Origin: Nitrospirales bacterium
Lineage (GTDB): Bacteria; Nitrospirota; Nitrospiria; Nitrospirales; UBA8639
Length of the DNA stretch: 64,000 nt
Assembly (NCBI GenBank): GCA_963422365.1
Contig: OY729426.1
Location: 320,001-384,000, forward strand
Reading direction: 5' to 3'
In this document: positions 32,101-38,100 of the stretch, piece after piece
Layout: the number at the start of each line of letters is the position of its first letter
Position numbering within the stretch: the first letter of the stretch is position 1
Program-made: the position numbers

Positions 32101-35100
32101 AGGCAATATAAATCAACTGCTTAGAGACATTGTAATTCTTTTTTACTACCCTCTCCAGGATCACGATCACCGGCAGGAATACGCGGGATTTGTAATGAGG
32201 GCTTGGGTTGTCGTTAAACACAACGGGCACCTCTGCATGAGCTTCTCTATCTTCATTGGATTCATCCAGTTTCGAAGCATCTCCATCAACTCTTTCCCGC
32301 TCTTATTGATCAAATCGTCTAACTCCTCTCTCTTTCCAAGAAATTGGTTTGCTTTGGTGCTTACGTTGCGCAGCATTGCCTCCGTGAGTGTGCCGTCTAT
32401 TTTCACTGTGAAAACAGCAGTGCTTGCATGATACGAGTCAAGTTTATTGAAGTTGTTCTAAAACGTCCCTGTCAGAAAATATTTTACCTTTCAACCACCT
32501 ACGGAATAGGGTTCTGAAAGTAATACCTCCAACAGGGGTGGTGTCACTAAAATAAAATGAAATCATAGCTCGTACTATAATTATTGGGGCTGTCCTAGAT
32601 AAACCTCGTTATCTAGAACAGCCCCTTCAGTTAAGTATGCTTGCCATGAGCATTCTGGCAGAGAGAATTCGTACGTCACGCGAACAGGCGGGCTTCTCCC
32701 AAGCGGACATCGCCAAGTCATTGCGCATCTTGGCTTCCGCTATCCATCAGCGGGAGCAGGGGACAGCCTAAATCGGGGTTCGGGGGACCATTGAGGGGAG
32801 CCTCACCCTGAGACTCTTCCAAAGGGAGAAGGTAAAAAGGGGACGGCACTATTATTGACCAAGAAACTTATTGACCAAGAAACGATTACTGGATTCCTGT
32901 TGGCAGGGTCGAACGGTTCACCCGCCGGATCAACGACCTGCTGGCCCACAAGGAGACACTCACGGAGTGTGCTAGGCGGTACGGTTACTCACCGCAGAAC
33001 CAACGCGGCGACTTTATTCTGCATTTTGTCTCCAATGCTCACCGCACTCGCCGGTTGTGCCTGAAACATCAGTCCCCCTGTCAACTCATCCGCCAACATA
33101 CGAAATACTTCCGCAGGAACATTCTCAAAATTCACTCATTCGCTGACAGCATCAGGAATGACACACAAACCGGCACGGAATGCCCCCCGCCATTAGCAGG
33201 CGAAACATATCAAGTACTCAGTTGGTGACCTAAGCCCATCTCTTTCATAGTATTTCATATAAACGCGATGCTTTGAAAAGACCCTGAATGACCACACACC
33301 TTTCACATTCAGGAGTTTTTATAGAGCCTGAAACCGAGGGAATTCAGAAAACCAGGGAGGGAATGAAGCAGTTCTGTGACGGGCTTCCCGCTTGCGCCTG
33401 CCGGACGGGGCTTCTCCCCAACACACCCGTTCTTTTCTTTCTACAGCGTGAGCACTTTTGCCAGTAAGCCAATCAGCAACGCATACGTGGCACCAAACAT
33501 CCCGATTAACCATTTAATGATATCGAATTTGGCCTCGGCTATTTGCACGGCAATGTCCTTCTTGATCTCTTGCCGTAAGAGCTCAATGTCCTTCTTGGTC
33601 TCTTGCCGTAAGAGCTCAATCTTTTCATAGATAGCGGCAATATCCTGATGAATAGCGGCAATATCCTGTTTGTTTGCCAGATTGCCGTTCAGCAGATTGA
33701 CCTGTTCGTCGGCTAGGACCTCGGCTTGAGATTCGGTAAACCCGTGTGCCGTCAGCCGCTTGACAAATCTATGGGTATCAAAGGCAATTGCTTCGTTCAT
33801 GCGCTAAATATAGCTTTCTATGGGTATCGATGCAACAATAACTTCAGGTGTTTTTACACAGCCGGCCGCTCGGGAATGCCAAACAGAGCGGGCACGACGC
33901 CAGACAGAACCCATCTACGGATAAAACCCATCTCTCCGGTTGCATTGCCAAAATATCCGGTGCTAAGATTGTTACTCAGATTTTTGATGCTCTTCGTGTG
34001 ACCTCTGGCGTTCTGCTTCGGGAGGGTCCCCTTTGTATAAGGGTGAAGTTTCGTAGGGAGGCTTCTGATGTATAAAACCATCTACATCCCTGTCGACAAT
34101 TCAGACCATTCGAACATGGCCGTCGATCTGGGTGTGCAGTTGGCCCAGGAATTCGGATCAAAAATCGTCGGTAGCCACGTCTATGCCGCCAAAATGCATG
34201 ATAAGCGGTTCAAGCAAATGGAAGCGGGGCTTCCTGAAGAATATCACGACGAAAAAGAGCTCGACCGGCAACGCAAGATTCATGATTCCCTCATCACACG
34301 AGGGCTCCAGATCATTACCGATTCCTACCTCGACTATGTGGATCAAAAGTGTGCTGAGTCCAATCTCCCCTTAGAACGACGATCCCTAGAAGGTCGGAAT
34401 TGGAAGGTTTTGGCCGAAGATATCAATACCAATGCGTACGATCTGACCATTATGGGATCGCTGGGAGTGGGAGCCGTGAAGGATTCCGTCATTGGCAGTA
34501 ATACCGAACGGATCCTGCGCCGAGTTCGCCATTCAGACATGTTTATCGTGAAAGACCTGAAGCCCATGAATGGGGGGAAAATCGTCGTGGCCGTGGATGG
34601 CAGTCCGTATAGTTTTGGCGGATTGAAAACCGGACTGGCCTTAGGCAAAGCGTTGAATAAGCCGGTTGAGGCCATTTCCGCCTTCGACCCTTATTTTCAC
34701 TATGCCGCCTTTCACAGCATTTCCGGGGTCTTGAACGAAGAAGCCGGCAAGGTCTTTCGCTTCAAAGAGCAAGAAAAACTTCATGAAGAAGTGATCGATA
34801 GCGGATTAGCCAAAATTTATCAATCGCATTTAGATATTTCTCGCGAAGTCGCTCAAGAAGAAGGATCAGATATTCGCACGACCCTCTTAGATGGGAAGGC
34901 GTTCGAAAAAGTCCTCCAATATGTTCGGAAAGAAAAACCCTGGTTGCTGATTGTCGGTCGAATTGGCGTGCATAGCGACGATGACATGGATATTGGAAGC
35001 AACACCGAGAATCTGCTTCGGGCGGTTTCCTGTAATGTCTTGATTTCCAATAAAAAATATGTGCCGCCTATCGACACCCAAGCGGAATATACCATTGCCT

Positions 35101-38100
35101 GGACGGAGGAAGCCTTGCTTCGGATGGAAAAGGTTCCGGTCTTTGCGCGTGGAGTCGCCAAGACCGCCATTCACCGTTATGCGATTGAAAAAGGTCATAC
35201 CATTATCAGCAATTCGGTGGTTGATGATGCAGTCGGCGATATTTTACCGAAAGGTGCGATGGAGGCGATGAAGGTCTTGGGCGGCCAACTCGATGAATCC
35301 GGCATCGATCGCAACCAGATGCAAGCCGATGACGCCGTGGCGACCGATCTTATGGGCTCGACCCTCAGCGGAATGGTCAACCAAGTCGTTGAAGAAAAAG
35401 ATCCCAGCACGAATCCCGCACTGAGTCCAGGCACCCAATCTTATCTGGATCGCATGGCCCAACCGTATTATGTCTGTGATGGGTGTGGCTACATCGGAAA
35501 GGGCCGTCAACCCGTCAAATGTCCGATTTGCGGAGGAGCAGGCGACGGCTTCAAAACCGTCGACAAAAGCGTTTTCGACGCGGCAGCCAAGCAAGAAGGG
35601 GTGCTGGAAACGCAACTGGCGTATGATGATGTCCCCATGCAATGGACCAAAGATGCTAAAGAAGCCATTCGAGCAGTACCGGCTGGATTCCAACGCCGCC
35701 GCGCGAAAGCCAAAATTGAAAAGTCTGCGAGAAAACTCGGCATGACCACGATCACATTGGAGTATGCCTCTCCTATGATTCAAGAAGCCGCCAACGAAGA
35801 CTATACCCCGATTTTCGCCAACAAAGAATCACAGGAAGAACAGCCCATACCCCAGACGAGCGAGATAGAACCTACTCAGGGCTCTCCCCATCGTTGGGAG
35901 CCCGAGGCGTTGATACGATTGGAACGTGCCCCGGAAGGGTTTATGCGGGATTGCACCAAGGCTCTCATCATTAAACATGCCGAAAAGCTAGGGACTACCC
36001 ATATTACCCTCGAAGTGGCAAACGAGGGGATCGAGCAAGCCAAACACACCATGGAAGAAGCCATGAAGTCCGGCAACGTCAAAGAAATTATTGCCAAACT
36101 GACTGGCGCAAGTGCTCAACAATAGAGAGCGGGCCACATTATGGGAAAATCACTCCCTGTTATTCATCTCCAGCAACGAGAAACACAGGGAAACCACGTC
36201 ACCGAGTGTTCTTCTCCCGCAGAAAATCCTTACGACGGCCGAACCGTCGATGATTTCAAGCCTTACCTCGTTGCCCTGAATCTCACCAAACGGTGTAACT
36301 TAAAATGTGCCCACTGTTATTTGGATGCCACCACAAAGGCCGGTGGGGGATCGGACGAACTCTCGACGGAAGAATGTTATCGGTTGATTGACCAAATCGC
36401 CGAGGTCAATAAAGGATGTTTACTGGTTATCACCGGAGGAGAACCCCTCGTCAGGCCGGACATCCTCGACCTTGCCCGCCATGCCGTCGGCCAAGGGTTC
36501 ATGGTCGTTTTCGGCACCAATGGCATGCTGATTAACGATCGCCTCGCCAATCAACTCGTTGAGATCGGCGTCATGGGCGTCGGCATCAGCATCGACTCCC
36601 TCGACCCTGACAAACATGACACGTTTCGCGGCATTCCGGGCGCATGGGAGGCAGCGGTCGCTGGAATCGAAGCCTGCAAACGGAACGGCCTGCAATTTCA
36701 GGTGCACTTCAGCGCCCAACCGATGAACTACAAAGAATTACCGAACGTGATCGAATGGGCCCATCAACTGGGGGCCCGCGTTCTGAACGTCTTCTTCATG
36801 GTGTGCACAGGACGTGGTGAGGAACTGACCGATATTACTCCTGAACAGTATGAAGAAGTTCTCGCCTTCTTGGTGGATACGCAAGAACAGTACTCAGATA
36901 TGCTGGTACGCGCACGGTGTGCCCCACACTTTAAACGTCTCGCCTATGAAAAAAATCCCAATTCCCCGATCACCAAAGCCCAAGGGTATATGGGAGGGGG
37001 CTGCTTGGCGGGAACGAATTATGCCAGAGTCACTCCCAATGGGGATCTGACTCCCTGTCCCTATATGCCCCTATCAGCGGGAAATATCCGAGACACCAGT
37101 TTCGTGGATTTGTGGGAAAAGTCAGAAATTTTTGACTCATTCCGTTATCCCAAGCTGAAGGGCAAATGCGGCGACTGTGAATATAGTGACATATGCGGCG
37201 GATGCAGGGCTCGCCCCTATGTCGATCATGGTGACTGGCTGGACGAAGATCAGTGGTGCTTGTATACCCCCAAAGGCGGGGAAAAAGTGCAGGTCGCGTT
37301 TAATGTTCCCGAGGACTCTCATGTGGAATGGGATGAATCCGCTCACACGCGTTTAAGTCGGGTCCCGTACTTCCTTCGCGCCATGGTGAAAAAAGGCGTG
37401 GAACGACATGCCCGCGAACACAAGATTTCTCTGATCACCGTTGAATTAATGGAAGAGCTTCGCCAAAAACGATTTGGCAACGAGAAGCCGGTTTTTAAAT
37501 TCTGATGAGTGCTCTCCTCGCGACACTTTCCGACCTCAATAAAATCATTCCCATTCTCAGTCACTGGCTGCACGTACTCTCGGCCATTGTTTGGATTGGA
37601 GGACTTGCCTTTCTGGTCCTGGCAGTCACGCCGGGGCTCCACTCGTCCGTCCCTCGGGAATTCATCAAACCCATTTGTGACACCTTCTATAAGCAGTATC
37701 GCAAGGTCGTTGGCATCCTGCTTGTCGTGATCCTCTTCACGGGCGGTATCAATCTGCATTACGTGGGAGAACTCATGGAAATGCAGACCGGCAACGGCTT
37801 ATCCCATAATGCCAAATATTTGACGGTTTTTTTTATTAAACTTACCCTGGTTCTCGGAATTTTAACCTTGTTTTTGTATACCGTCATTTTTCGCATTGAA
37901 CCCACGGGCGAGGAAGATGAACAAGAAAAAGAAGAGCACATTATTGAGCCCATTCCTTTCCAAAAAGCAGGACTGTTTATGGGCGTCTTTATCATTCTTT
38001 GTGCCGCTGCCATGAAGCATCTCCATCTGTAACACCTTGTCTTTTCGCCTTACCCGCCCGTAGACTAGTTTTTTATTTCCTCAGAAACATGCGAAGGCAG

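Follow-up and report, generated by a model that had tools for sequence, protein, structure and literature searches.

A radical SAM enzyme that sits beside a tandem universal stress protein (USP), with both proteins carrying PCP_red, a module of the protochlorophyllide reductase subunit BchB/ChlB, raises the question of what such a pair does in a bacterium that is not phototrophic. The window analyzed here, 64,000 nucleotides of a Nitrospirales genome, holds this pair. We estimate at about 60% the probability that the two genes are central to a maturation kit dedicated to the cofactor of the OR-N ("bd-like") oxidase, a poorly understood enzyme of nitrite-oxidizing bacteria.

Organization of the locus

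Three genes lie on the plus strand: g00338 (34068-36125, 685 aa), g00339 (36141-37505, 454 aa), and g00340 (37505-38032, 175 aa). A gap of 15 bp separates g00338 from g00339, which in turn overlaps g00340 in the sequence TGATG, and g00340 is translationally coupled to it. A USP gene stands directly upstream of the g00339 homologue in 76 of 80 Nitrospirales loci. The product of g00340 is a CopD/DUF4149-like four-helix membrane protein with four hydrophobic segments and a Pfam CopD match (E 1.7e-5) below cut-off; a gene of this type occupies the same position in 75 of the 80 loci, a pattern of Nitrospirales-like loci. HemJ was ruled out as its identity, with no PF03653 match anywhere in the genome.

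The double-USP protein g00338 consists of a tandem USP core (residues 1-331; 34068-35060) with three PCP_red modules and a rubredoxin-like CxxC..CxxC ribbon (residues 470-488; 35475-35531), the latter recognized by Pfam as RUBY_RBDX below cut-off (468-495, E 0.0013). Pfam finds two Usp domains, and the nearest solved folds are tandem USPs (Foldseek E to 9e-17, 13-18% identity), which assigns the protein to this class. It shares the two-domain fold with Rv2623, UspE, and TTHA0350 but differs from them in its long helical insertions, four invariant histidines, PCP_red tails, and very high conservation. Each domain holds a G-x2-G-x9-G-S motif (residues 130-144 and 297-311), which we take to be an ATP-binding motif, and a helical insertion with two histidines 28 residues apart (H44/H72 and H211/H239). 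These were invariant in aligned homologues (H44 136/136, H72 138/138, H211 140/140, H239 139/139), making the core a candidate ATP-gated haem or metal site. The structural model reaches pLDDT 81 over residues 1-400, with the second histidine hairpin at only 54-65. The USPs of two other families, f11 and f21, lack a PCP_red tail, and tagging of the USP is therefore dispensable.

PCP_red modules in a non-phototroph

A profile search of the genome yielded 12 PF08369 matches on five proteins, 10 of them over the Pfam gathering score of 32.5 and the best (E 7e-18) well beyond chance. The survey's finding of such modules on five proteins of a non-phototroph was thus real, though its count of nine was too low. 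Three matches fall on g00338, one on g00339, four on a protein at contig position 1015945, and two each on a protein beside an Mrp gene and on one in an oxidase cluster. Within g00338, modules 1 (35100-35231, E 1.8e-13) and 2 (35643-35762, E 3.3e-10) are over cut-off, and module 3 (35895-36020, E 4.2e-6), missed earlier, is below it. The module of g00339 (residues 397-441; 37329-37463, E 4.1e-14) matches PDB entries 2L09, 2KRU, and 2XDQ_B. All 22 Nitrospirales in a sample of 101 genomes of the phylum have 11-12 matches; among 14 control genomes, only a cyanobacterium had any. One of three zinc ribbons preceding PCP_red, all previously described as CxxC..CxxC, proved to be CxC..CxxC.

The domain had been thought to occur otherwise only at the BchB/ChlB C-terminus, but the stand-alone cyanobacterial protein Asr4154 (PDB 2L09) also matches, so PCP_red is not restricted to those subunits. 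Over-cut-off matches link the modules here to the BchB/ChlB domain and Asr4154 (PDB 2KRU, 2L09), with the common pattern W..A..RL..(V/I)P.F.R...E..A...G...(I/V)T. Unlike in BchB/ChlB, the modules of non-phototrophs are repeated up to five times and are attached to enzymes, USPs, zinc-ribbon proteins, and a probably dead ChdC. Used alone as a query for homologues, the module returned close g00339 relatives almost exclusively and no new architectures. The ESM Atlas yielded nothing beyond PCP_red clusters, generic USP clusters, and DUF2621 at 0.84 as a lead. Our literature search on PF08369/PCP_red and the BchB/ChlB C-terminal domain found no description of its role.

Do the modules bind tetrapyrroles, as the survey's finding proposed? 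Across 304 distinct modules, no histidine, cysteine, tyrosine, or methionine is conserved (core columns 4-48: His at most 14%, Cys 4%, Tyr 29%, Met 38%), so that the axial ligand expected of a haem-binding module is missing. Docking is therefore likelier than tetrapyrrole binding, although a metal-free ring or a side chain may still be bound. A tetrapyrrole dock stays in play because PCP_red has been joined twice, independently, to a coprohaem-enzyme fold: once to an AhbD-clade enzyme in family f12 (489 bits) and once to a ChdC fold in six of seven f15 genomes. The tyrosine and the histidine of solved ChdCs have no counterpart in the aligned f15 ChdC domain, which, judged by these residues, is probably dead. 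We tentatively regard the modules as mainly docking elements; contact with a tetrapyrrole is possible, and some other role improbable. OR-N, USP, and the g00339-type enzyme are all missing from the f15 genomes and from five of six f10 genomes, which have one PCP_red each; the module must therefore have a role beyond the proposed kit.

g00339 and the AhbD family

The domain layout reported earlier for g00339 was found again: Radical_SAM at 47-205, SPASM at 288-347, and PCP_red at 397-441 (E 3e-13, 50 bits, cut-off 32.5). Its CxxxCxxC motif is formed by C52/C56/C59, and a full eight-cysteine SPASM motif runs from C260 to C373 in the form CX20-33CX17CX36-37CX2CX5CX2CX17-35C. The CX3CX2C and C-terminal SPASM cysteines of AhbD are thus both present, the latter by comparison with the motif in the text consulted of PMC10452713.

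Profile scores were highest for NirJ2 (TIGR04055, 330 bits) and AhbD (TIGR04545, 318 bits), both under cut-offs of 500. The AhbC profile (TIGR04546, cut-off 650) gave 177 bits, and nothing else in the genome matched it better; peptide maturase profiles gave at most 143 bits. The characterized top-scoring families AhbD, AhbC, and NirJ act on iron-tetrapyrroles. Eighteen relatives of g00339 scored 230-344 bits on TIGR04545, a cut-off that short AhbDs in hem operons miss too (416-453 bits). In an IQ-TREE phylogeny (LG+G4, 76 rows), g00339 lies in a clade of its own, hereafter the long clade (support 100/97), separate from the AhbD clade (98/97), and FastTree returned the same split with 146 of 175 rows, the other 29 being fragments or double domains; AhbD is represented in both trees by sequences other than those characterized biochemically. 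AhbC is nearer to AhbD than the long clade is. The NirJ2 rows, including P0164 (533 bits), also fall outside the long clade, and unlike a NirJ2 system, this genome is without sirohaem decarboxylase genes.

AhbD-clade paralogues coexist with the long-clade enzyme in some genomes, at 37-39% identity. The short paralogues, not the long-clade genes, hold the hem-operon position, and no AhbD-style context (ahbABC or hemE/hemH/hemY) surrounds g00339-type genes: HemY is the next gene in no more than four loci, and two related genomes have HmuY there. Thus, g00339 resembles AhbD in its radical SAM domain, full SPASM motif, and profile score but is set apart by its PCP_red tail, by a histidine-rich USP partner in place of ahbAB or hemE/hemH, and by its coexistence with AhbD, ChdC, or HemN/HemF. 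A complex prediction of g00339 (38-454) and g00338 (1-400) with two haems scored 0.00 and is neutral as evidence. On sequence evidence, g00339 is a sister of the AhbD family, not a member, and the label "AdoMet-dependent heme synthase" is unsafe on this clade.

The long-clade gene does not follow the haem pathway

In 33 of the 35 carriers of the long-clade enzyme in the phylum sample, another last step to haem is evident: a ChdC-family gene in 21, an AhbD-type paralogue in 9, and HemN or HemF in 3. Here, that step may fall to a ChdC-like protein (contig 1798013-1798720) whose best PDB match is the coprohaem decarboxylase 9MHQ (E 1.6e-25). It scores below the NCBIfam HemQ cut-offs (130 vs 235) but has ChdC structural relatives and an aligned YPF tyrosine and proximal histidine, presumably the functional ChdC residues. 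A six-frame search of the genome, 98.6% complete, found neither AhbA/B (PF17805) nor AhbC, bearing out the earlier view that there is no sirohaem route; HemN over cut-off, HemF, and HemJ were likewise not found, while HemE and HemY are adjacent. CbiX, considered as a genus-specific HemH substitute, was discarded on finding it also in three of three HemH-positive relatives tested.

AhbD operating in the coproporphyrin pathway without other Ahb enzymes has already been published (PMC13564367, in the portion consulted). In this phylum, such a role fits the short paralogue, which sits in ahbD-hemE-hemH(-hemY) operons. The long-clade enzyme is independent of the type of haem pathway and instead follows OR-N.

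Co-occurrence with the OR-N oxidase

The USP core was present in 36 of 101 phylum genomes, and the long-clade enzyme in 35 of those 36 and in none of the 65 others. OR-N was found in 34 of the 36 USP-positive genomes and in none of the 65 USP-negative ones (34/101 overall), counts in which kin are not independent; the two exceptions are assemblies broken into 470 and 120 contigs. Canonical CydB served as a control and occurred in 35 of 65 USP-negative and 12 of 36 USP-positive genomes: the pair does not track canonical cytochrome bd. The 4 of 54 genomes in family f11 that have the pair are also the 4 that have OR-N; they belong to four genera, and in three of them the two lie no more than 5 kb apart on the same strand. 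This link to unusual oxidases is the best-evidenced part of the survey's finding. The OR-N protein is CydA-like (partial Pfam Cyt_bd_oxida_I match, 11-12 hydrophobic segments), as in the OR-N family of the cytochrome bd superfamily (Murali et al., bioRxiv 10.1101/2021.01.16.426971; Kop et al., PMC12342949); we left its subfamily unassigned.

We then considered 62 distant loci, namely long-clade metagenome loci from outside Nitrospirales, many of them short. Nine of 80 metagenome loci had been set aside because they fell outside the long clade, having no PCP tail and scoring almost alike on the two profiles, and these had neither USP nor OR-N. Among the 62, OR-N occurred in 31 and Mrp with the zinc-ribbon-PCP_red protein in 21; Mrp, zinc-ribbon-PCP_red, USP-PCP_red, radical SAM-PCP_red, and OR-N stood together, with all four partners present, in 11. 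The remaining half showed no OR-N in the DNA examined, and the USP was missing in 7 of the 28 whose upstream DNA was long enough. For 26 of the 31 OR-N genes, the best match is this genome's paralogue at contig position 2399594, which has a PCP_red protein in its cluster. The kit and oxidase thus share one locus in distant lineages and are scattered in Nitrospirales, where neither OR-N nor Mrp lay within 8 kb of the pair in any of 80 loci. The zinc-ribbon partner was present in only 28 of 36 USP-positive genomes. Unlinked from OR-N, the pair is nevertheless 86-88% (USP core) and 80-85% (radical SAM) identical across families. A small number of transfers of a single cassette may account for the patchy co-occurrence. 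In oxic nitrite-oxidizing N. moscoviensis, transcripts of the USP and radical SAM genes stand at 9.3x and 3.3x the median (PMC6606698 Table S1, in the part consulted).

A maturation kit and its alternatives

As the pair is gained and lost with OR-N, it most likely prepares the haem cofactor of that oxidase. The kit would also take in the Mrp/ApbC-type ATPase and its zinc-ribbon-PCP_red neighbor, which, going by family identity and gene order, would load the [4Fe-4S] clusters of g00339. The USP would bind an iron-porphyrin between its invariant histidine pairs and release it under ATP control. g00339, by its motifs and kinship, would then make a radical oxidative change on a side chain of this porphyrin; at about even odds, the product would be haem b made from coprohaem and channelled to the oxidase, or a haem carrying further modification. 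The PCP_red modules would mainly act as docking tags that keep the parts together. NirJ offers a precedent, as a radical SAM enzyme that makes a haem dedicated to a single respiratory enzyme. A bolder joint reading, in which the product is an undescribed OR-N-specific haem, the USP its ATP-gated carrier, and PCP_red an ancient tetrapyrrole-contacting lid common to DPOR, to enzymes of the AhbD type, and to a ChdC scaffold without catalytic activity, is doubtful.

The survey's finding had instead cast g00339 as a general oxygen-independent coprohaem decarboxylase closing the coproporphyrin pathway, with PCP_red docking coprohaem or haem. The full SPASM motif as in M. barkeri AhbD (PMC10452713, text consulted), the adjacent HemE and HemY, the lack of HemN over cut-off, HemF, HemJ, and AhbABC here, and the f12 and f15 fusions all speak for it. 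We nonetheless judge it unlikely, given the separate clade, the paralogues and other last steps in the same genomes, and a distribution that follows OR-N; the missing axial ligand and degenerate f15 ChdC also count against it. The same co-occurrence data would suit a kit that matures OR-N on protein or metal, the SPASM enzyme cross-linking or modifying an oxidase residue, with the histidine-rich USP, the zinc ribbons, and Mrp supplying copper or iron. The best PDB matches of g00339 include the peptide-modifying SPASM enzymes PqqE, SkfB, and anSME, a copper site is proposed for one bd-like oxidase (PMC6606698, part consulted), haem-copper oxidase genes occur in some distant loci (COX1-like in 7 of 62, COX2-like in 10), and the four histidines could bind metals equally well; yet scores of 318-330 bits to tetrapyrrole enzymes against at most 143 to peptide maturases, together with the HemY and HmuY neighbors, make this improbable.

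Still less probable is a passenger or regulatory role for the two genes in a microaerobic respiratory island, with the USP as a redox or energy sensor beside an Fe-S enzyme and neither needed to build the oxidase, or a role in methyl-plastoquinone synthesis. In N. marina, operons induced by low O2 have flanking USPs (PMC8115632, part consulted), but the identity of the pair across families despite its separation from OR-N, and f15 genomes without any pair, argue against a passenger role. Because the genes ahead of the operon include mpqE and one for an Slr0320-like radical SAM protein in 53 of 80 Nitrospirales loci, a quinone role was weighed and then set aside: these neighbors occur neither in the present window nor among the recurrent neighbors of the distant loci.

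Implications for nitrite oxidizers

For Nitrospira-type nitrite oxidizers, the identity of the terminal oxidase is still a proposal, with OR-N the main candidate, and the OR-N literature examined describes no purified enzyme or cofactor analysis. The main texts of Murali et al. and Kop et al. (PMC12342949) contain no "radical (SAM)", "universal stress", or maturation genes, nor was the kit described in literature found with searches on AhbD/Nitrospira, Nitrospira/protochlorophyllide reductase, OR-N, and OR-N maturation, which covered the main text of the OR-N preprint. If our preferred reading of a haem-maturation kit is true, it would name the genes needed for heterologous expression of OR-N, and it would predict that this oxidase may carry a tailored haem. 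H44, H72, H211, and H239 of the USP are concrete residues for testing, and the PCP_red proteins include simple ones from which to learn what PCP_red binds.

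The three-gene operon and its surroundings

The survey's placement of the three genes, all on a single strand, was confirmed. The tandem-USP gene g00338 and the long-form radical SAM gene g00339 are separated by a 15-bp gap, and g00339 overlaps the third gene, g00340, in TGATG. Pfam assigns to g00339 Radical_SAM (residues 47–205), SPASM (288–347), and PCP_red (PF08369; 397–441) domains. In g00338 it finds a pair of Usp domains along with three PCP_red modules and a rubredoxin-like ribbon. The g00339 protein carries the radical SAM triad as well as all eight cysteines of the SPASM motif reported for Methanosarcina barkeri AhbD (PMC10452713).

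The window has two short genes for coiled-coil, heptad-repeat proteins: one at 33441–33800, with a CCDC90-like Pfam match, and one at 48870–49373, in which a 7-residue unit recurs about seven times. Upstream of the three genes are what we take, by resemblance, to be an isc-like Fe-S cluster operon (window 12597–18435) and a 2-oxoacid:ferredoxin oxidoreductase cluster (24782–28483). An island that is presumably Type I restriction-modification-like, again by resemblance (789–12300), includes a specificity-like ORF of 790 aa with a long internal insertion. At 28921–30302, a gene that we presume from resemblance to be S-adenosylhomocysteinase-like seems to be broken into a pair of minus-strand ORFs of 380 and 125 aa that overlap, which suggests a frameshift or assembly error. 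Absent from the window are mpqE and a Slr0320-like B12 radical SAM gene, found immediately upstream of the operon at 53 of 80 Nitrospirales loci (L065:3188-5663).

Spread and conservation of PCP_red

The PCP_red feature is real and conserved. A search of the genome gave 12 PF08369 matches on five proteins, 10 of them above cut-off, so that the survey's five proteins stand but its nine modules do not. Each of the 22 Nitrospirales among 101 genomes sampled from the phylum has 11–12 matches, and 1 of 14 control genomes was positive. Nor is the module confined to the BchB/ChlB C-terminus, as had been supposed, since it also occurs by itself, in the cyanobacterial protein of PDB 2L09. Among 304 distinct modules, conservation falls on W, A, R, P, F, R, E, A, G, and T; because no His, Cys, Tyr, or Met is conserved, ligation of haem iron by PCP_red appears unlikely. 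The carriers, namely a USP, a radical SAM enzyme, and an Mrp neighbor, suit a docking tag. On the domain's role in DPOR, the BchB/ChlB-containing reductase, we found no statement in the available portions of PMC13474568, PMC12022308, and PMC13297055.

Tetrapyrrole docking is kept open by two independent fusions, in families f12 and f15. An AhbD-clade radical SAM enzyme of f12 (489 bits) bears its own C-terminal PCP_red (L152:3583-4971, L153:990-2378) in genomes that also have a long-clade enzyme, and this tail is an independent fusion. In 6 of 7 f15 genomes, the sole PCP_red and a ChdC fold are joined by a low-complexity linker (L116:7036-8061, L117:7335-8378, and L122–L125). This ChdC fold has lost the tyrosine and proximal histidine and is probably a pseudo-enzyme scaffold; the genomes with this fusion yielded no OR-N (a "bd-like" CydA-like oxidase subunit), USP, or long radical SAM enzyme. 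One f15 genome, G076, has HemN. Stand-alone PCP_red genes occur in f10 (L109:6979-7185, L113, L114, and L115), mostly in genomes without OR-N, and a PmbA/TldD gene adjoins them at both scanned loci, L109 and L115. In two f12 genomes, a HmuY-family gene lies downstream of the long radical SAM gene (L129:1461-2351, with Pfam support, and L107:3823-4692).

Relationship to AhbD and the last step to haem

Although g00339 had been read as an AhbD, it scores 318 bits against the AhbD profile TIGR04545 and 330 bits against NirJ2, where both cut-offs are 500, a threshold not decisive alone because short AhbDs of hem operons score 416–453. In an IQ-TREE phylogeny (76 labelled rows, LG+G4, midpoint root), 41 long-form rows formed one side of a 100/97 branch; 30 AhbD-like rows, defined by profile scores and ahbAB or hem-operon context because no characterised AhbD is among the rows, grouped at 98/97, with AhbC adjoining and NirJ2 outside. 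FastTree (146/175 rows) gave the same long-form/AhbD split. Long and AhbD-type copies within one genome share 37–39% identity (four pairs), and the short paralogue of anaerobic Nitrospirota sits in ahbD-hemE-hemH(-hemY) operons (L135, L137). By score and tree position, g00339 is not a member of AhbD.

The genome encodes a protein of the chlorite-dismutase family. Among solved structures its best relative is a coprohaem decarboxylase, and the YPF tyrosine and proximal histidine, which have functional roles in ChdC, align. A Nitrospira ChdC-type enzyme is reportedly active. HemE adjoins HemY (contig 1852263–1854842); AhbA/B, HemF, and HemJ had no match in the genome, and AhbC and HemN nothing above cut-off. 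Among the 35 sampled long-form genomes, 21 have a ChdC-family gene (residues checked in the genome under study alone), 9 an AhbD-type paralogue (assigned by match alone in G098 and by the tree in the other 8), and 3 HemN above cut-off or HemF (the HemF match containing one internal stop), while the remaining 2 are fragmented, AhbAB-positive assemblies. The general last step that the survey had assigned to g00339 does not require this enzyme. That AhbD can act in a coproporphyrin pathway lacking the remaining Ahb enzymes has already been described (PMC13564367). Ferrochelatase HemH (PF00762) is absent from this genome, which also has no AhbAB, and from 24 of 24 genus relatives; it is present in 15 of 16 other Nitrospirales. 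A CbiX-like protein is encoded at contig 546878–547501, and HemH-positive relatives have one too.

Co-occurrence with OR-N

OR-N belongs to a CydA-like family that lacks a quinol site and has been put forward as the terminal oxidase of Nitrospirales (bioRxiv 10.1101/2021.01.16.426971; PMC12342949). Searched without its PCP tails, the USP core occurs in 36 of the 101 genomes (the 35 long-form genomes plus one 230-contig assembly) and OR-N in 34, every one USP-core positive, counts that are non-independent because of cassette transfer. The zinc-ribbon gene is in 28 of the 36. Canonical CydB, the control, was found in 35 of 65 USP-negative genomes (one match below cut-off) versus 12 of 36 USP-positive ones. 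When family f11 was searched whole (genomes at least 85% complete, n = 54), each gene was in the same 4 genomes, in three of which the genes share a strand and lie no more than 5 kb apart.

Distant clade members, used as queries in a metagenome scan, recovered 80 loci. Excluding 9 that belong to another family and setting apart 9 Nitrospirales-like ones leaves 62. OR-N lies within the fetched DNA at 31 of these, starting ≤600 bp downstream at 17 of the 48 with at least 500 bp of downstream DNA. USP was present at 21 of 28 loci with 2.5 kb of upstream DNA, Mrp and the zinc-ribbon-PCP gene at 21/62, and all four partners together at 11/62. Source labels of clade members were Nitrospinota, Dehalococcoidia, Rokubacteria, Binatia, Planctomycetota, Deltaproteobacteria, and Nitrosomonadales. 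Because the partners share loci in distant lineages, the kit genes scattered over this genome are one system. Against this view count the Nitrospirales loci, where neither OR-N nor Mrp lies within 8 kb (0/80), the incomplete spread of the zinc-ribbon gene (28 of 36), and the non-independence of the counts.

USP histidines and transcription

Each g00338 USP domain has a helical insertion with a histidine pair spaced 28 residues, invariant among aligned homologues down to ~32% identity (H44 136/136, H72 138/138, H211 140/140, and H239 139/139). Both domains keep G-x2-G-x9-G-S, which we take to be the USP ATP-binding signature. The structure model is a tandem USP (pLDDT 81; second hairpin 54–65). 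USP rather than PCP_red is the best ligand candidate. In oxic, nitrite-fed Nitrospira moscoviensis, transcript levels of the orthologues NITMOv2_0498 and NITMOv2_0497, assigned by coordinates, were 9.3-fold and 3.3-fold the median, compared with 2.4-fold for hemE and 1.7-fold for hemH (PMC6606698 Table S1). For the USP/radical SAM pair, this fits housekeeping respiration better than anoxic backup.

Proposed role

Anatomy, clade, partners, co-occurrence, invariant residues, and transcription in a relative are direct observations. A general AhbD activity of g00339 would agree with its SPASM motif and sits poorly with its separate clade; we regard it as unlikely. Protein or metal maturation of OR-N, which would draw on the same partnership, is more doubtful still. 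A passenger or regulatory role seems very improbable. We found no description of such a kit in the literature searched, most subscription papers and the OR-N preprint supplements lying outside that scope.

We favor, at a probability of about 0.6, a haem-directed maturation kit for OR-N. Mrp would load clusters, USP would hold an iron-porphyrin, and g00339 would oxidise one of its side chains, the product then going to OR-N. Synthesis of haem b that is channelled to the oxidase and formation of a new haem are about equally likely within this reading.
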